From contig JAUVNS010000010.1 of assembly GCA_030599585.1 (NCBI GenBank), positions 64,001 through 128,000 of the forward strand: a DNA stretch of 64,000 nucleotides, written 5' to 3'. Every line of letters starts with the position of its first letter. The stretch's first letter is position 1. The position numbers and the translations under genes were made by a program. Shown here piece by piece: positions 36,635 to 49,897 of this stretch. The notes beneath the pieces were generated by a model. The model searched no databases. It was not told the DNA's origin and worked only from the letters and a program-made list of their open reading frames with translations. Origin of the DNA: Promethearchaeota archaeon. GTDB taxonomy: Archaea; Asgardarchaeota; Lokiarchaeia; Sigyniarchaeales; SOKP01.

Positions 36635-39007
36635 ATGGTTGAATGCAAATTTTGTGAATCTCAAAACATTTCTTTTACTTGTGAGAAATGCAAGTCAAGT
36701 TTTTGCATTAACCATATGGCTACAACAGAAAGTTGGCTTTGTAAAAAACATGCGTTACATTATTCTAAGGCGAGTGCCACTGAGAAATTTTATAAATGTA
36801 CTGTTATTGAAAATAGTAAATGTCCAGAATGCGATTCTCTCTTAAGATTAGAAAGATTATCATCTGGTCATTATTATTTAGAGTGCATTGATGAAGCATG
36901 CAGTTGGAACTCTTACTTAAAATCTCCTGGCTTATTTTTTCCTACTAAAGAACAGTTAGCTAGAGAAGCTACGAAATATAACTTAATTAAAGGATATAGG
37001 TTAAATTTATGTCGTAGGTCTCTTAAAAAAATAGTTGGAAAAGAAATTTGTCCAAACTGTTTCATAGAATTACTCAAGAGAGCCACAATTACTAACTTCT
37101 CCACTATTATCGAATCATTCAATGTTACTGCTCAACAAATGATTAAATTAATTAATCAATACATTGAAGAGGAACGAATCTATGGTATAATTGATCAGAA
37201 GAACCAGATTTTTTACTACATATCCTACGAAATCCGTGAGAAAATTTTATCGAAAATTCAAAACGAGGGCATTTTGAAAGTAGCAGATCTGGGAGAAATG
37301 CTCGATATGAGTTCAGACGCGGCTATAAAAGTCATTTACAAGTTGATTAGCCAATTTCAAATTAAGGGCTCCTTTTCACAAACGAAACAATTTTATTACT
37401 CCCAAAAATATATAATGGACCAATTAATAAAAGAGATTAATAAAAAGGGAAGGGTATCGTTAGATAAACTTGCGAAAATATTTGATGTCCCAGGAGAATT
37501 GACAAAATCTTTTTGCGTCAATCTAATGAGAACTAACGCAGTAAACGGATTTTTTGCCGATCGTGGTAATGAAATTATTACATCTGACCAAATCTATAAA
37601 GAAATTAAAGCATATTCAAAAGAAGTAGGTTTATTTGAGCTCTCTAAGCTTGCTATAAAATTAAAAATAGCGATAGAATTAGCAAGAAAAAGTCTACATG
37701 AACTCATTAAATCTGGCAAAGTTAAAGGCCTTTTTACACAACGCAGAGAATTTATGACTCGTAAATACCTTGAAACGAAAATAAAAGAAATCGCTCGAGC
37801 CTATAGAACGATGCCATTAAGAGAACTTTCAAATCGATTGGGTGTAACTGAATCCAGTATAGAAGAGAATCTTGCTCAACTTATTGGAAGCGGAGATATC
37901 GATGGTTTTATTGATTTAGGAAAGCGAATGTTTACGGCATACTCGGTACCACGCACTTCATCTAAAACTTCGCGTCCAAAACAGAAAAAATCAATTTCTA
38001 TCGATGAGGGAAGCATAGAAATTGTAAGGGATTATGATTTCGAAGGTGGACAAGTACATATGAAAATAGCCGTGCGGAATAAAAGCGATATGGCTATAAA
38101 TAATGTTAAAGTTTTATTGGATGCGCCATCTAACTTCAAAGTAAAACAACCTTTGATTAGTGTTCCCGTAATTGAAGCTAATAATAGTAGGGGCGTTGAT
38201 TTTTATCTTGAGCCCAAAACTTGCGGTACATCAAATATTGGCGGAACTGTGATATTTAAAGACGCATCAGGTGAAAAACACACTAAACACATAAGAAAAC
38301 AAGAAGTTGCTATAAAATGTCCTCTTGTTTGTACCTCAATGAGCACTATAGAGGATTGCCAAGTCGCGATACAAACCTTAGGAAACGATGCTCGGGCATT
38401 TTTAATTGCTGATTTAGACCCTCGTTTAGCATATAGGGCTGCGATAAGAACTCTAAAAAACTTTGATACTAGCGCTGTAACATCCCACGAGGGTTCTGAC
38501 GCAAAGGGAAACTACGAAGCTGAAGCATGGTTCTGTTCTGAAGCAAAAACTACTGGCGGAAGAATTATTACACGTATCTATGTATCTGAAACAAGTCAGT
38601 CATTAGAAGTAAGGGTATGGTGTGGAAACGCAGGAATGCTTACGGGATTCTTAGCAAAAATTATAGAAATACTGTTTGAGCAGATAAACATAATCAGAAA
38701 AATCAAATCAGAGGAAAGAGAGAAAACAATAGATGTCATGGCAATTACACAGAACTTAGCTGAAATCAGCGATTATTGTATGCTTAGATGGAAGGCACAG
38801 AATATAAGAAACAAGTTACATGACACATTTGTCCGTTTAAGGAAAATTATAGGAGATAATGAGGCTATTTTAGGTAGAGTTGAATATTGGCTAACTCAAT
38901 TGAATAAATATGGCAAAGACGACAAAATCAGCGATGAAGATGCCGAAAAATTAGTGAATGATGTAGAAAAAATCAAAAATGTCGTTTCTCGAGCAATAAA
39001 ACTGTGA
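36635..39007 (+). CDS. 790-aa multidomain protein: Zn fingers, five winged-helix (PCI/DDRGK/UFL1-like) repeats, Ig-like plus alpha/beta C-terminal module
   Basis: Several N-terminal CxxC/CxxH pairs; repeats ending IYGIIDQ, IKGSFSQ, VNGFFADRG, VKGLFTQ, IDGFIDL; beta-rich KIAVRNKS..I.NV segment. Confidence 0.7.
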   Translation: MVECKFCESQNISFTCEKCKSSFCINHMATTESWLCKKHALHYSKASATEKFYKCTVIENSKCPECDSLLRLERLSSGHYYLECIDEACSWNSYLKSPGLFFPTKEQLAREATKYNLIKGYRLNLCRRSLKKIVGKEICPNCFIELLKRATITNFSTIIESFNVTAQQMIKLINQYIEEERIYGIIDQKNQIFYYISYEIREKILSKIQNEGILKVADLGEMLDMSSDAAIKVIYKLISQFQIKGSFSQTKQFYYSQKYIMDQLIKEINKKGRVSLDKLAKIFDVPGELTKSFCVNLMRTNAVNGFFADRGNEIITSDQIYKEIKAYSKEVGLFELSKLAIKLKIAIELARKSLHELIKSGKVKGLFTQRREFMTRKYLETKIKEIARAYRTMPLRELSNRLGVTESSIEENLAQLIGSGDIDGFIDLGKRMFTAYSVPRTSSKTSRPKQKKSISIDEGSIEIVRDYDFEGGQVHMKIAVRNKSDMAINNVKVLLDAPSNFKVKQPLISVPVIEANNSRGVDFYLEPKTCGTSNIGGTVIFKDASGEKHTKHIRKQEVAIKCPLVCTSMSTIEDCQVAIQTLGNDARAFLIADLDPRLAYRAAIRTLKNFDTSAVTSHEGSDAKGNYEAEAWFCSEAKTTGGRIITRIYVSETSQSLEVRVWCGNAGMLTGFLAKIIEILFEQINIIRKIKSEEREKTIDVMAITQNLAEISDYCMLRWKAQNIRNKLHDTFVRLRKIIGDNEAILGRVEYWLTQLNKYGKDDKISDEDAEKLVNDVEKIKNVVSRAIKL

Positions 39008-40774: not shown

Positions 40775-41137
40775 ATGGGAAAAGGGAAGTATGGAAAAGG
40801 ATATGATAAAAAAAGCCAAGCTTCAAAAAGCTCTGGCTCTAAAGGTGGAGGGGCGCCTATTCGTGGAGGTAAGATCAAAGCCAGTCACATTTTAGTTGAT
40901 AAATTCAGTAAAGCTCAAGAGCTTTCTGAGGATATTCAAGCCGGAGAGAACTTTGAAAATTTAGCAAGGCAATTTTCTACGTGTTCGAGCAAGAAAAAGG
41001 GCGGAAATTTAGGTGAATTTGCCAAAGGGGATATGGTCGCTGAATTTTGGAATGCTTGTACAAAATTGAAGATCAAAGAAATTTCTCAGCCCGTTAAATC
41101 TAAATTTGGATATCATATTATTAAAAGAACGGGATAA
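40775..41137 (+). CDS. parvulin-type peptidyl-prolyl cis-trans isomerase
   Basis: ASHILV, F..LA..FS.C.S...GG.LG.F, MV.EF, PVKS.FGYHII. Confidence 0.92.
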   Translation: MGKGKYGKGYDKKSQASKSSGSKGGGAPIRGGKIKASHILVDKFSKAQELSEDIQAGENFENLARQFSTCSSKKKGGNLGEFAKGDMVAEFWNACTKLKIKEISQPVKSKFGYHIIKRTG

Positions 41138-41192: not shown

Positions 41193-41265
41193 TAGCCCAG
41201 CACGGATTCGAACCGTGGTCACGGGGTTCAGGGCCCCAGATGCTTGACCGCTACACCACTGGGCT
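41193..41265 (-). tRNA. tRNA-Gln (anticodon CTG), CCA not encoded
   Basis: Minus strand folds as a cloverleaf: AGCCCAG/CTGGGCT acceptor stem, TGGGG-CCCTGAA-CCCCG anticodon arm, CACGG-TTCGAAT-CCGTG T arm. Confidence 0.93.
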
Positions 41266-41408
41266 TTAAAATGATAATTTATTAATAAGATATAGTTGGT
41301 ATTATCTAAAAAATCTTTTTCTTTTGAAAAGATGGCTAATCCAAAAAGCCTACTAGAATTTCAGATTTTATAGTGCAAAAAAAAAACCTATCTTTGAATA
41401 AAGATAGA

Positions 41409-41433
41409 TTTATATTACTTCATAACCTTATGA
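41409..41433 (+). promoter_or_regulatory. archaeal TATA box (TTTATATT) with purine-rich upstream element, followed by the palindrome TCATAA-CC-TTATGA
   Basis: TATA box lies at about -31 to -24 relative to G41440, the first G of the structured element. Confidence 0.55.
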
Positions 41434-41438
41434 TGTAT

Positions 41439-41610
41439 TGGATTACACTAGGTTTACATGGAGGATTATAAAAAAAAAACTTGTTTTTATTAATGCTCTT
41501 CTGAGTATTAATACCCCGTGAAATTACGCGTTTTCCGCGTATTTTGGGAAACTGAAAAAACAAAACCCCGTTAAACTAAAAGTAATACCTTATCCTCCAG
41601 GTGTAATCCA
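41439..41610 (+). ncRNA. candidate novel structured ncRNA (~170 nt)
   Basis: Closing stem TGGATTACAC/GTGTAATCCA, second stem TGGAGGAT/ATCCTCCA, inner stem TTGTTTTT/AAAAACAA, two hairpins; upstream TATA box and downstream T7. Confidence 0.6.
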
Positions 41611-41611
41611 C

Positions 41612-41618
41612 TTTTTTT
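41612..41618 (+). terminator. oligo-T terminator of the candidate ncRNA
   Basis: T7 one base after the closing stem. Confidence 0.5.
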
Positions 41619-41650
41619 GAAAAGATAATTAACCCTTAATACTAATATCA

Positions 41651-42859
41651 CTAATCAGTGTTATATAGGGAAAAAATCTCATGAAAATACTTATCGCTCA
41701 TACCTGCGATAAAATCACGAGCTATTAACTTGAGATTTCCATTTTGCTTATTTGGTTCAAAATAGGTACTGTATTTTTCATCATCAATATATTCTATGTG
41801 GTCGATAAAAATAGGAGCGTGAAAGTTTTCTTCCTCTAAATCTCGGAGAGAATTTTCAAAAATTAGGTTGAATTGCTTTGTTAGGTTTTCCATGTAGGAA
41901 ATTTTAGAATGTTCATTTTTGTGCATATCTCTTCTGCTATATATACTATCATAATTAAATTTCTTTAATTCTTTGAACGCTTCAAAAATATCTTCACTGT
42001 AACCGATTTTATCATTATGTAAACTTGTGTTTAATAAATCCATGATGAGAGTTTTCATAATTTTTCGATTAGTATCCCCAAGTACATTTCTACAACTATT
42101 TGGGATATCAGATCTCTTGATTATTTTTAATAGAATTGCGTCTTCAATGTCTCGACCAATATAGGCAACAGAATCCGCAAATCTTACTGCGATGCCTTCG
42201 AAAGACATAGGTATTCTTTTAATTAGATTAGCGTTAAAACTTTCTTTATATTCTTTAAAATGATCTTCCCAACTCTTCCCATTTATTGTTACTGGTTTCA
42301 AAGCTCTCTCGTTAACTTCGCCGTCGTGACATAGAACGCCATCTAGCACTTGAAGTGTTAAATTTAATCCTTTTGCTGGTTTATCAGGAAATCTTTTTTC
42401 AAGATAAGATAACCACCTTATCCCTTGAGCATTATGGTTGAAAACCCCCATATGATTTTTCAAACTTATATCGTTTAATATAGCTTCACCTAAGTGTCCA
42501 AAGGGGGAATGTCCTACATCATGACTTAAAGCAATCGCCTCTATTAAATCAGTATTAAATTTCAAAATTCGTCCTATTTGACGCGCAATTCTGGCTACTA
42601 AAATAACATGTAGAGAACGATGAGTAATATTTGCGTTATTAATGCCAAAAAACACTTGAGTTTTATCTATATAGCGAGCGTAAGCTTTACTGTGAACGAT
42701 ACGATCAACATCTCGAAAGAATGCAGGTCGGATATCAATTTTGGATTCTTCATCTTCTTCGTAATATCTTACTGCTTGTGAATCAGATATAGCCTTCTCT
42801 TTTATATCTGAATCGCGTCTCATATGAAGTCTATAGATTTTAAGGTTTTTAGGATCCAC
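41651..42859 (-). CDS. HD-domain dNTP triphosphohydrolase (dGTPase-like)
   Basis: RPAF.RD.DRI.HS, KTQVF, R..H, HDVGHSPFGH.GE, AD..AY...D.ED, DFIAGMSD. Confidence 0.88.
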   Translation of the reverse strand: MDPKNLKIYRLHMRRDSDIKEKAISDSQAVRYYEEDEESKIDIRPAFFRDVDRIVHSKAYARYIDKTQVFFGINNANITHRSLHVILVARIARQIGRILKFNTDLIEAIALSHDVGHSPFGHLGEAILNDISLKNHMGVFNHNAQGIRWLSYLEKRFPDKPAKGLNLTLQVLDGVLCHDGEVNERALKPVTINGKSWEDHFKEYKESFNANLIKRIPMSFEGIAVRFADSVAYIGRDIEDAILLKIIKRSDIPNSCRNVLGDTNRKIMKTLIMDLLNTSLHNDKIGYSEDIFEAFKELKKFNYDSIYSRRDMHKNEHSKISYMENLTKQFNLIFENSLRDLEEENFHAPIFIDHIEYIDDEKYSTYFEPNKQNGNLKLIARDFIAGMSDKYFHEIFSLYNTD

Positions 42860-44585: not shown

Positions 44586-46496
44586 TTATTTTAGGAGTAA
44601 TGTTTCTCTATTCTTAGGACTTTTGGTTGCTTTCCTCAATTTCTTATGAATCATCGTAGATAAACTCACGCATTTACTCTCTTCTCCGTGATTTGTTATG
44701 ACAAGCTTGGGTTTGGGTTGAATTCTACGTAGAAATTGAGATATTTGGCTGCGCGATGAATGTCCGCTAAATCCTTCTAAAGTGAAAACATTCAAATTAA
44801 GTCGTACTAGTTGGGTTCTTCCCTTTGCGTTAGAGTATTGAATTTCACGAAATCCCCGTTGAACTCTTGACCCTAAAGTGCCATTCACTTGATAAGATAC
44901 GAATATTAGAGAATTCTTTTTGTCTTCTGCGAGTGCTTTAAGATATTGTACTGAAGGACCCCCAATGAGCATACCACTAGTGGCTAATATTATACAAGGT
45001 CCACCCATAATAACATTTTCCCTTTCATCTCGACCTGAGACTGTAGTGAAAAAATCGCTCATAAACGGATTTTTACCTTGGTGTAATATCTTTTCTCTTA
45101 AATCGGAGCTAAGAAAATCTGGATTAGCAGTGTGTATCGCTGTTGCTTCGGAGATTAAACCGTCTAGAAAGATAGGAACTTGATCGATGATGCCTTTCGA
45201 AATAAACTCTTCTAAGACGATTATAAGTTCTTGAGCTCTTCCTACAGCTAACACAGGGATAAGTATCTTCCCACCTCGTTTAATTGTTGAAGTTAAAATT
45301 TGCCGAAGCTCCCGTTCGGAATCTTGCCTGCTGGGAATCCGATCTTGCGGTCCGCCATAAGTTGACTCAATAAGTAAACTTTCAACGCGGGGGAACTTCA
45401 CAGCGGCTTGTTCAAGTAGCCTAGTCTTCTGATATTTGAAGTCCCCAGTATATACGAAATTATATCCTCCTTTTCCAAAGTGGAGGTGAATTAGCGATGA
45501 TCCTAATATATGCCCGGAATTATGAAGAGTTAATTTTATATCAGGAGCAATATCAGTGACTTTTCCCCATGAGAGAGGAATTGTATGGAGTACAGCGCTT
45601 TTCACATCTCTCTTTGAGTAGGGCATTGGAATTCCCTCTTTTTCACAAATCTGGACGAAATCCAATTGTAACATGGTTGCCAGGTTGCGAGTTGGAAGAG
45701 TGCAATAGACTGGACCTTGGTATCCATACTTAAATAAGTATGGAACCATACCACAGTGATCTAAATGAGCATGAGATATAATTACAGCATCTAAATCCCT
45801 TATAGAGAATTCGGGGATATCAAAATTAGGAAATTGATCGTTCTTGTTCCCTACATTCAAACCAACATCTAAAAGAATATTGCTATCCCTCGTTTGCATT
45901 AAGATGCAAGATCTTCCAACTTCTCTAAATCCGCCTAACGCAGTTAAACGTATATCCAATTCCTTGAACAAGGTAGGTCTGTGGATTCGTTTTCCAATAT
46001 TAAGGAGTATATCTTTCTGATTTTGTCTTTCTTTGGTAAGCATTTGCCTAATTAAACTGATAGTTCTCGAAGGAAGAGGAGGAGTTCGGATGGTTTTTGG
46101 TTGCCAGAAGGTATTCAGTCTAATCTCTTTTAAATTTACACCTTTCTTACCAATAACTAATCCTGGTTTTCCGGATTCTATAATAACTTCGCCACGTGTG
46201 TGATCAAATTCAATATTTGTAATTTCTGCGTCTTCACTAATCAAATTTCTAATGTAATCTTCAGTTTCAGAGGGATCTTTGCGATCTTCCACATTCCATC
46301 GAAAAACCACTCTTTTCCGCATAGATTTTGCTAATTCCTTCAGAACATCGGAACTTTCAATTGCTTCAAGATTTGAATTCTCAGAGTAAACAGCTATTTC
46401 AGGTCCCTCAAATTCGATTTTTTTTACTACTATCTCGGGAGGAAGATGTTGAATAATTTGTTCTTTAATTCTTTGTAGTTCTGATTCGAAACTCAT
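44586..46496 (-). CDS. fttA: beta-CASP ribonuclease aCPSF1 / transcription termination factor FttA
   Basis: Two N-terminal KH domains (KPGLVIGK), LGG.REVGRS, SHAHLDH, GHILGS, ESTYG, FSGH, NHGE. Confidence 0.95.
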   Translation of the reverse strand: MSFESELQRIKEQIIQHLPPEIVVKKIEFEGPEIAVYSENSNLEAIESSDVLKELAKSMRKRVVFRWNVEDRKDPSETEDYIRNLISEDAEITNIEFDHTRGEVIIESGKPGLVIGKKGVNLKEIRLNTFWQPKTIRTPPLPSRTISLIRQMLTKERQNQKDILLNIGKRIHRPTLFKELDIRLTALGGFREVGRSCILMQTRDSNILLDVGLNVGNKNDQFPNFDIPEFSIRDLDAVIISHAHLDHCGMVPYLFKYGYQGPVYCTLPTRNLATMLQLDFVQICEKEGIPMPYSKRDVKSAVLHTIPLSWGKVTDIAPDIKLTLHNSGHILGSSLIHLHFGKGGYNFVYTGDFKYQKTRLLEQAAVKFPRVESLLIESTYGGPQDRIPSRQDSERELRQILTSTIKRGGKILIPVLAVGRAQELIIVLEEFISKGIIDQVPIFLDGLISEATAIHTANPDFLSSDLREKILHQGKNPFMSDFFTTVSGRDERENVIMGGPCIILATSGMLIGGPSVQYLKALAEDKKNSLIFVSYQVNGTLGSRVQRGFREIQYSNAKGRTQLVRLNLNVFTLEGFSGHSSRSQISQFLRRIQPKPKLVITNHGEESKCVSLSTMIHKKLRKATKSPKNRETLLLK

Positions 46497-47707: not shown

Positions 47708-49897
47708 ATGCCGCGTCGGAAGGAGATTTCAGAAATTCTGAATATGATGGAAAAAACGCAAAATATTAGAAACATTGGATTTGTTGGACATATAGATCAC
47801 GGAAAGACAACGCTTTCTGATTCGCTTTTGAGTGAGGCAGGATTATTGTCACCCGATTTAGCAGGTGAAGCACGCGCTCTTGATTATTTAGAGGAAGAAC
47901 AAGCTAGGGGGATTACGATGAAATCTACTAATATTTCATTATACTACGAGAAATCATTGAAAGATCATGAACCATTTCTAATAAACCTCGTAGATACGCC
48001 TGGACATTTAGATTTCAGTGGAAAGGTGACTCGCGCTCTAAGATTAATAGATGGGGTTGTAGTAGTTGTTGATGCTGTTGAAGAGATAATAACTCAATCA
48101 GAGACTGTGATTAAACAAGCTCTACAGGAAGGTGTAAAACCAGTACTTTATATCAATAAAGTAGATCGCCTCATCCGAGAGTTAAAGCTAACAGATGAAC
48201 AAATAAGAAAAAAATATACAAGAATTATTAAAGATTTTAATACATTAATTAAAAGACACGCAGATAAACCCTTTAAAAAAGAGTGGCAAGTATCTCCTGC
48301 GGATGGAAACGTAGCATTCGGCTCAGCGCTCCACAAATGGGGTTTTACATTAAGTATTTTAGAAAATAACGAGTTAAAATTTTCTGATATTAGATCTCGT
48401 TATCAGAAAGAAACTTACACCAAAGAGGGTTATGCTGACTTAGCAGTCTATTTTCCAATACATAACGCCATATTGGAAATGGTAGTTGACCATCTCCCCA
48501 ATCCTAAAGAAGCACAAACCTATAGAATCGGAAAGATCTGGGAGGGCGATTTAGAGTCGGAAATTGGAAAGGCTATGGTAAATTGTGATCCTAAAGGACC
48601 TACAATTATTTGTTTAAGCAAGGTACAAGTAGATAAACATATTTTGATAGGAACGGGCAGGATTTTTTCCGGAATGTGCTCAATGAAAGAAGATATTTTC
48701 TTGGTAAGAGAAAACAGTTACGATACAATCCGAAGGACAGCTCTCTTTATGGGACAAAGAAGGGAGCAAGTCGAACAAATACCTGTCGGTAACATTGTAG
48801 CAGTTGAAGGATTAAAGCGATTGCAAAGCGGTGAAACAATAATCGACAAAGACTTTGCCAATTTAATGGTTCCGTTTGAAGAGGTTAAATACATATCTAC
48901 TCCTGTAGTAACCGTTTCAATCGAGCCGGAGTATTTACGAGAACTTGATAAAATGAAGGAACTAATTGAAAACTTATTAATAGAAGACCCAAACCTTAAA
49001 TTTGAAATTAACGAGGAAAACGGCGAATTCTTGCTTTCGGGAGTTGGACCGCTACATCTTGAAATCACAGCAAATGAAATAGAAAAACGTGGTATAAATG
49101 TTTCTATTTCAGAACCACGAGCTGTATTCAAAGAATCTTGTAAGTATGATTCTTCCCTTGTCTCTGTAAAATCGCAAAATAGCAGGAATTCTCTTCAACT
49201 GAAAATTGAAAGAATAAAGGACAAGACTTCGAGGTTTTTACAAACTCATGATTTAGCAGCAATTAAACCTAAGGCGAGATTGAAAGAATTATTTGGGGAA
49301 CATACAGAATTAACGTTAGAAGAAATACAAAACTTCTGGAGGTATTTTGAAAATGACAACCTGTTTTTTTATAAAACGGAAGAAGATCTTGCCCCCACTT
49401 ATAAAGAAATTATAGAAGAAATTGTTGGTAAGATCCTTTCAAACGGATTTTTATGTGGTGAAAAAATTACTGGAATTAAAGTTAAAATTAGCGAGTTGAA
49501 CATAGATGAGCTTAATGAAGAAAACGCTTATACAGAATTATCCGCATTGTTCTACGAGGCCATCAAAAAAGGTTTAAACCAAGCAGAAATAATCCTTCTT
49601 GAGCCGATATATCTCACAATTATTCAATTACCCCCTGATTATGTAAAAAATGCGCTTTCTTTAGCTTCAAAGTATTCTGCTAAAATAAAGGATGTTAATC
49701 AAGAAAAGGATTATCAGGCTATTATTGAGATGTTACTCCCAGTAAGGAATTCGATAAAGTTTGCTGAAGATATTCGATCGTCTACTTCAGGAAAAGCATT
49801 TTGGCAGAATGAGTTTTATGCTTTCATGGAGGTTCCTAATCACGAAGCTAAACTAATTATAAATGATCTGCGCTTTATGAAAGGTATATCTTGGTAA
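47708..49897 (+). CDS. elongation factor 2 paralog (aEF-2p-like; no diphthamide motif)
   Basis: GHIDHGKT, RGIT, DTPGH, NKVD, EDP, G.LHLE, LLEP; the domain IV HRG motif is replaced by the acidic IDELNEENAYTE. Confidence 0.88.
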   Translation: MPRRKEISEILNMMEKTQNIRNIGFVGHIDHGKTTLSDSLLSEAGLLSPDLAGEARALDYLEEEQARGITMKSTNISLYYEKSLKDHEPFLINLVDTPGHLDFSGKVTRALRLIDGVVVVVDAVEEIITQSETVIKQALQEGVKPVLYINKVDRLIRELKLTDEQIRKKYTRIIKDFNTLIKRHADKPFKKEWQVSPADGNVAFGSALHKWGFTLSILENNELKFSDIRSRYQKETYTKEGYADLAVYFPIHNAILEMVVDHLPNPKEAQTYRIGKIWEGDLESEIGKAMVNCDPKGPTIICLSKVQVDKHILIGTGRIFSGMCSMKEDIFLVRENSYDTIRRTALFMGQRREQVEQIPVGNIVAVEGLKRLQSGETIIDKDFANLMVPFEEVKYISTPVVTVSIEPEYLRELDKMKELIENLLIEDPNLKFEINEENGEFLLSGVGPLHLEITANEIEKRGINVSISEPRAVFKESCKYDSSLVSVKSQNSRNSLQLKIERIKDKTSRFLQTHDLAAIKPKARLKELFGEHTELTLEEIQNFWRYFENDNLFFYKTEEDLAPTYKEIIEEIVGKILSNGFLCGEKITGIKVKISELNIDELNEENAYTELSALFYEAIKKGLNQAEIILLEPIYLTIIQLPPDYVKNALSLASKYSAKIKDVNQEKDYQAIIEMLLPVRNSIKFAEDIRSSTSGKAFWQNEFYAFMEVPNHEAKLIINDLRFMKGISW

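Follow-up and report, generated by a model that had tools for sequence, protein, structure and literature searches.

Introns of the relaxed BHB type are known from tRNA genes (PMC4090602, PMC6379350; bioRxiv 10.64898/2026.10.13.758758), where the HBh'/BHL form was described among non-canonical tRNA introns (PMC4090602). Relaxed motifs are cut efficiently by two types of the tRNA splicing endonuclease, EndA, one of which is the (alpha-beta)2 type (PMC6379350). A census of Asgard introns covers tRNA genes only, with no mention of ncRNA, SRP or RNase P, and uses the rule of four central pairs plus one flanking helix (bioRxiv 10.64898/2026.10.13.758758). Outside tRNA, EndA substrates include the cbf5 pre-mRNA intron (PMC2738675), the 5' UTR of Haloferax HVO_1309 (PMC7714728), the permuted SRP RNA of Thermoproteus (PMC4731332) and rRNA precursors. 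Non-coding RNA substrates have been raised as a possibility only, and for the eukaryotic enzyme (PMC6379350).

The locus described here lies in a 64,000-nt stretch of a Lokiarchaeia genome (contig JAUVNS010000010.1; hereafter, the window), and it is best explained as a small RNA gene of housekeeping style, present in single copy within one Lokiarchaeia family and carrying an optional intron (Table 1). With relaxed BHB introns the insert shares a length of 29-32 nt, a 4-bp exon:intron helix, an intron-side stem, 3-nt bulges and repeated gain and loss at one site, and its geometry is that of the tRNA-Gln 45/46 introns of relatives; the host, however, is a stand-alone small RNA and not a tRNA, rRNA or mRNA. 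Like the non-tRNA substrates, it is predicted to engage the tRNA splicing machinery in a host other than tRNA, but cbf5, HVO_1309 and the Thermoproteus SRP RNA represent mRNAs or the end-joining of a known RNA, whereas here an internal intron sits within a core motif. The intron thus extends a known splicing system to an unusual host, an RNA that fits no family tested.

Table 1. Features of the RNA locus and its divergent tRNA neighbour, in window coordinates.
Feature	Positions	Strand	Remarks
tRNA-Gln(CUG)	41193-41265	-	divergent neighbour; context, outside the RNA itself
Putative archaeal promoter block	41403-41416	+	BRE-like GATAGA plus TATA box 41409-41416 (TTTATATT); fixed spacing, conservation
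Predicted precursor RNA	41440-41618	+	170 nt to 41609, then U-rich tail; mature form about 140 nt once spliced
P1, 5' strand	41440-41448	+	pairs with 41601-41609
P2, 5' strand	41459-41466	+	pairs with 41592-41599
U-rich tract	41480-41488	+	pairing possible with A-run 41555-41562; Sm-site-like (lead only)
Hairpin 1	41488-41513	+	clade-specific accessory element; this form seen in about 15 of 90 homologues
Core motif copy 1, ACCCCGUG	41513-41520	+	5' exon end; CCCG 41515-41518 in predicted splice central helix
Predicted optional BHB-type intron, HBh'/BHL form	41521-41550	+	30 nt; contains hairpin 2
ACUGA	41551-41555	+	3' exon start; splicing would join it to ACCCCGUG
Core motif copy 2, ACCCCGU	41565-41571	+	predicted single-stranded
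P2 and P1, 3' strands	41592-41609	+	pairing, covariation

The RNA gene occupies an interval between a parvulin gene ending at 41137 and a dGTPase-like HD gene on the minus strand ending at 41651. The initial annotation had seen no long ORF here, and indeed none of at least 50 aa is present between these two positions; a peptide-coding reading was rejected as well, since no frame survives the one-base indels of the A-runs. The usual gene order is parvulin, tRNA-Gln, RNA and HD hydrolase, and the locus is syntenic across genera, with tRNA-Gln(CUG) adjoining the RNA gene in most homologues. Rearrangements occur: in L014 (G014) the tRNA-Gln has the opposite orientation with respect to the RNA gene, the flanking genes of L199 and L200 lie in a larger inversion, and in G034 an additional, broken parvulin copy stands beside the locus. 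The parvulin of the window (40775-41137, plus strand) has a basic Gly/Lys-rich N-terminal tail and is found throughout the class. The window's tRNA-Gln(CUG) (41193-41265, minus strand) has C at position 33, where U is usual; relatives have C or U. Farther away, a 790-aa protein (36635-39007, plus strand) matches PCI, UFL1, DDRGK and VPS28-like domains, a eukaryote-like mix, and its homologue lies near the RNA in 13 of the 30 loci looked at. Two other genes on the plus strand are, judging by the appearance of their sequences, presumably an aCPSF1-type beta-CASP ribonuclease (44586-46496) and an EF-2 paralogue (47708-49897).

A covariance model found one full-length copy in 90 of the 126 genomes of the window's family, and the window's own genome has one copy. 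BLAST recovered 24 same-genus orthologues, and a broader model combined with synteny added G198, G200 and G206, bringing the total to ten genera. Six same-genus genomes that gave no match also lack the neighbouring parvulin, and the locus is therefore probably unassembled there. The covariance model matched none of 24 genomes from other families of the class, and about 126 genomes of other Asgard families likewise gave no match. Within the family, no copy was detectable in the five genomes of genus g18, of which two are 100% complete; a loose pattern search in g18 met no homologue, its matches falling within a coding gene, and a synteny search at tRNA-Gln and parvulin found none in g18 or in other families. 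Model R2 detected no distant homologue in 40 genomes, nor in 151 genomes of the phylum, although a diverged form could escape all of these searches. No model match was found in 80 viral contigs, where pattern matches were due to chance. The RNA seems confined to one family. In L400 (G280), a genome without a model match, an intergenic stretch near position 1500 on the minus strand has two motif-like copies and no closing stems; it is possibly a decayed or diverged homologue.

Several lines of evidence indicate that the locus is an RNA gene. The initial annotation had placed a TATA box at the canonical archaeal distance from G41440, and this claim is strongly supported: the spacing from the GATAGAT-TTT block to the first G is exactly 37 nt in 25/25 same-genus copies, T occurs at -30/-29 in 98-100% of 87 homologues, and ungapped identity is 0.74 in the block against 0.43 downstream. 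The block is accordingly inferred to act as a promoter. With its ends placed from promoter and closing stem, the predicted RNA folds on the plus strand at -48.8 kcal/mol (z = -5.5; none of 200 shuffles was equally good), compared with z = -3.7 on the minus strand. RNA length ranges from 102 to 222 nt across homologues, and the minimal homologues of 102-103 nt consist of the closing rod and a loop, lacking both the terminal arm and hairpin 1.

The two closing stems provide further support. The 10-bp stem (41439-41448/41601-41610) and the 8-bp stem (41459-41466/41592-41599) first described from the window lie where they had been placed, and both covary. Among 42 homologues, double-sided changes occur in 8 of 10 pairs of P1 and in 5 of 6 pairs of P2; together, 13 of 16 pairs are double-sided, whereas shuffles give 5.5 and slid controls no more than 5, and none of 500 shuffles scored as high, in an alignment that was fitted to the model and whose related sequences are not independent. 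A MAFFT alignment agrees in direction; RNAalifold run on a MAFFT alignment told nothing about P1 and P2, which were misaligned there. P1 is nearly invariant inside several genera, while divergent genera change both strands jointly. Covariation thereby shows P1 and P2 to be a two-part rod, which is predicted to join the 5' and 3' ends. Several one-sided changes convert pairs to U-G on the plus strand and would be mismatches if read on the other, in keeping with the earlier preference for the plus strand on the ground of a G-U pair.

It could be asked whether such an inverted repeat acts at the level of DNA, as an operator, a recombination site, an origin element or a MITE, with no RNA produced at all, and the near-invariance of P1 within several genera would suit this idea. 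Such a reading is nonetheless very improbable: the element is single in each genome and its locus is fixed, with no dispersed copies of the kind that the initial annotation had named as the mark of a MITE and with none in the viral contigs tested, its G-U wobbles pair on the plus strand only, and an insert with a splice motif makes sense only at the RNA level. We are highly confident that this is a real RNA gene. The single copy, the fixed promoter spacing, the covarying stems, the strand-specific G-U pairs and the lack of any Rfam match support a stand-alone, structured and uncatalogued RNA encoded on the plus strand, as had originally been proposed. Other details of that proposal fared less well. 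The run of seven T residues does not follow the closing stem directly but lies at 41612-41618, one C later, and among 90 homologues just 24 have five consecutive T residues within 12 nt. Likewise, GGTTTAC, the basis of a supposed second pairing register in a tandem 5' arm, recurs in 3 of 90 homologues, and the segment is a variable bulge. Both reported hairpins are present in the sequence, but hairpin 1 is an accessory feature of few homologues and hairpin 2 falls inside the optional insert; similarly, the proposed RNA of about 170 nt holds for the predicted precursor, not for the mature form, which would be about 140 nt if hairpin 2 is a BHB-type intron. Judged by their occurrence among homologues, hairpin 1, the tandem register and the T-run are accessory.

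The insert that contains hairpin 2 is precisely missing from 64 of the 90 distinct homologues, in which the intron-less junction is restored exactly. In the window's allele, UGGG of the insert (41545-41548) can pair with CCCG of the exon (41515-41518) to give a 4-bp central helix with bulges of 2+1 nt. A census made independently of the splice motif collected 29 homologues with at least 10 nt at the site, of which 26 form at least three central pairs out of four and 21 form all four, compared with 8% and 0.7%, respectively, of shuffles. The 26 fitting inserts are all 29-32 nt long, and in each the 3' strand pairs with the exon CCCG and is followed by two bulge bases; the remaining three are A-rich or longer and do not fit the geometry. 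Clustering at 70% identity divides the intron bodies into nine groups, and all keep the same 3' helix strand. The intron-side flanking helix, h', is paired in 85% of cells, with double-sided changes in five of nine pairs. On a tree of the mature sequences, 15 intron changes are needed, and at least eight gains or losses are forced by well-supported branches; all eleven metagenome contigs (genomic) of the window's subclade keep the intron. Three sequencing runs, probably of DNA, yielded contigs and no spliced junction, and one metatranscriptome yielded nothing, an outcome that weighs neither for nor against splicing. A 58-nt insert at the intron site of L097:105-332 (G194) does not fit a single BHB and possibly represents nested introns.

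The exon-side outer helix, h, of the canonical hBHBh' motif does not form, since a C stands opposite a C beside the 3' bulge, and the insert is therefore assigned to the relaxed HBh'/BHL type; it has the combination on which the Asgard tRNA census relies, four central pairs with one flanking helix. An internal control is provided by the tRNA-Gln genes of five relatives, in which an intron at 45/46 has the identical CCCG-NG exon end and an AGGG-AN intron end. More broadly, the tRNA-Gln genes of relatives (L009, L048, L055, L105, L120, L122) carry optional introns of 29-32 nt at four sites (D-loop, 37/38, 45/46 and T-loop), with up to two introns per gene, and ARAGORN misses or miscalls many of these intron-bearing genes. 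Two EndA paralogues, 200 and 202 aa in length and encoded on C24 and C35, are present in the genome; one of them has the catalytic His segment, and the pair is consistent with an (alpha-beta)2-type enzyme.

Because BHB geometry is combined with exact intron-less alleles, it is very likely that the insert is spliced out. The other reading is that the insert is a tolerated hairpin within a real RNA and is never removed. The A-rich inserts of 6-17 nt at the same site in three genera would be compatible with such tolerance, as would the missing outer exon helix, but the idea is improbable given that the CCCG-pairing 3' strand and the 2-nt bulge persist in every one of the 26 inserts of 29-32 nt, across nine sequence groups, that the same geometry is seen in tRNA introns, and that an unspliced hairpin would bury the most conserved motif of the RNA. 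In the precursor, the CCCG of motif copy 1 would be buried by the intron, so splicing would free it; very probably, then, the intron must be removed for this C-rich motif to be exposed.

The mature RNA has a small set of conserved parts. AACCCCGTG is present in 71 of 90 homologues, the rest carrying close variants, and ACTG is invariant in alignment A1. Of 87 homologues, 69 contain ACCCCGU two or three times, and in the predicted fold the motif has a mean unpaired probability of 0.78, compared with 0.30 for other G/C positions. The spacer from the motif to ACUG measures 0, 2 or 6-8 nt, and one-base insertions are tolerated. An R-U-Y-UUU tract lies upstream of motif copy 1 in 63 of 87 homologues. 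In most other genera there is also a UCAGU strand, for which two ACUGA sites are possible pairing partners, the distal site being the more frequent (33 of 51); the window's genus has no such strand and retains ACUGA. As judged from these comparisons, the constant parts are the rod, the U-tract, ACCCCGUG followed by ACUG, and usually a second ACCCCGU.

These features suggest a mechanism. The RNA would be transcribed from its own TATA promoter, with a start near G41440 inferred from the fixed spacing, and the P1 and P2 rod would probably shield it from exonucleases. In the window's allele, the 30-nt intron would lock the CCCG of the motif into a bulge-helix-loop, from which a two-subunit tRNA splicing endonuclease would excise the intron and an RNA ligase would join the exons. 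In the resulting RNA of about 140 nt, the predicted fold and the conservation suggest that two ACCCCGU motifs are held single-stranded between A-rich linkers, where they may be displayed to a sequence-specific RNA-binding protein, the RNA acting as a scaffold or decoy. CsrB and RsmZ are protein-titrating RNAs with GGA in hairpin loops, and the present RNA resembles them in its repeated, short, single-stranded motifs within an otherwise variable sequence; this is an analogy and not membership, as here the motif is ACCCCGU, there are only two or three copies, the closing rod is long and the host is an archaeon. That a stable, EndA-spliced RNA displays repeated motifs to a protein is a tentative proposal with somewhat less than an even chance of being correct. 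It is supported by a motif that occurs two to three times, is unpaired, is variably spaced and tolerates one-base insertions; moreover, no RNA partner tested covaried with the motif.

In the main alternative, the same gene, spliced in the same way, would act by base pairing, with AACCCCGU seeding on ACGGGGUU at the junction of 16S helix 15 and helix 4. The RNA could then assist the assembly of the small subunit as a snoRNA-like folding chaperone, or could pair with G-rich sites elsewhere, helped by Sm-like proteins on the U-tract. A perfect 8-bp complement, extending to 10 bp with one G-U for copy 2, lies at about 388-397 and is the best 16S match found, and the genome has four Sm/Lsm genes. 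ACGGGG is present at the site in 10/10 family 16S sequences read and differs in the six read from other families; furthermore, the 16S of G190 reads GGGGCC and its RNA has the sole GACCCCGUG variant among 87, amounting to one compensatory change. On the other hand, the CCCUCGUG variant of G198 is not mirrored in its 16S, the conserved G and the ACUG located 3' of the seed stay unpaired, and in g18 the identical 16S site is present while the RNA is not detectable. When switched motifs were sought in the sister family, the search returned background counts and no similar RNA, and the complement is not enriched near start codons. We estimate that chance would supply about 0.1 complements to an 8-mer in 4.9 kb of rRNA. 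Owing to this counter-evidence to 16S pairing, a protein partner is favored and action by base pairing is considered unlikely, though by no means negligible. The same modest weight attaches to the more specific suggestion that the RNA may be a subunit of an Asgard RNP, such as an Sm-bound, non-modifying, snoRNA-like chaperone of 16S h15 that is switched on by tRNA-type splicing.

Several other sequence matches of the core motif were considered. It shares 11 nt, in sense orientation, with tRNA-Gln positions 37-48, which was dismissed as coincidence, as the tRNA segment varies and the RNA motif is constant. A sense match of ACCCCGUG in the helix 45 region of 23S rRNA was rejected as well, being lost in g18, and a sense match at the 23S peptidyl-transferase center does not differ between the two 23S sequences read, so covariation is uninformative there.

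The RNA has no counterpart among the known families compared. An Rfam search of the window, the check that the initial annotation had proposed, yields tRNA only, both at the gathering threshold and locally to E = 10, and relatives give no 6S or Y match to E 1; no description of the RNA was found in the literature searched. SRP and RNase P RNAs, which the first reading had set aside for want of their hallmarks, are encoded elsewhere, on C22 (63.8 bits, below the cut-off) and C7, respectively, as are 16S and 23S rRNA. Rfam finds no 5S in the window's own genome or in most of the family because the 5S rRNA is circularly permuted (G000:C9:122112-121951, minus strand; also L183-L198): a UUCG linker closes helix I and the chain opens near loop B/C. 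With this 5S located on C9, the idea that the RNA is the missing 5S was rejected. As SRP, RNase P, 16S, 23S and the permuted 5S all lie elsewhere, the RNA is none of these.

A loose likeness to 6S or Y RNAs, noted at the outset, does not extend to membership. As in 6S RNA, the ends are paired and the unspliced form is similar in size; with Y and stem-bulge RNAs, the RNA shares a two-segment 5'-3' closing stem with a bulge, a large loop and a U-rich tail. A 6S-like decoy of RNA polymerase or a Y-like RNA would also account for the large single-stranded region and the strong promoter of its own. Both are nonetheless quite improbable, for homologues of 102-103 nt lack a second duplex arm or terminal arm, such an arm is not conserved, length varies from 102 to 222 nt, and neither 6S nor Y is matched in Rfam. 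Archaea are not known to have a sigma-70 system. Ro60/TROVE is found in none of 161 genomes of the class, in a search that detected its positive controls, and the GGUCCGA/UUGAC stem is missing; the Ro-binding stem with a bulged C was not seen in alignments A1-A3. Guide RNAs were also rejected. For a C/D box guide, CUGA is present, but a C/C' box is not conserved and ACUG follows at a distance of 0, 2 or 6-8 nt; for an H/ACA guide, tail positions 1-3 are mostly A-C-Y, with A at the third in 1 of 87.

An A-run followed by CCCC resembles the templates of ciliate telomerases, and A(n)CCCC is here repeated within a loop that a long-range stem closes, as might be expected of the template RNA of a reverse transcriptase. 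That identity is hardly credible, as the linker between the motif copies varies freely in length, the genome contains no arrays of the motif, and its best reverse transcriptase match is retron-like and on another contig, a second match being shorter. The retron-like gene itself (L270:1231-2379; G000:C15) scores under NCBIfam cut-offs.

What the initial annotation missed is the BHB-type intron and the single-stranded ACCCCGU(G)..ACUGA as the conserved information of the RNA. Very little has been charted of the small RNAs of Asgard archaea, and a single-copy gene whose stems covary and which is kept in ten genera suggests an everyday role in the cell. With its predicted splicing, the RNA would add a substrate class for the tRNA splicing endonuclease. 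Finally, the Asgard census leaves open the route by which introns arrive, and repeated gain at one site of a non-tRNA host shows that the cloverleaf is dispensable.
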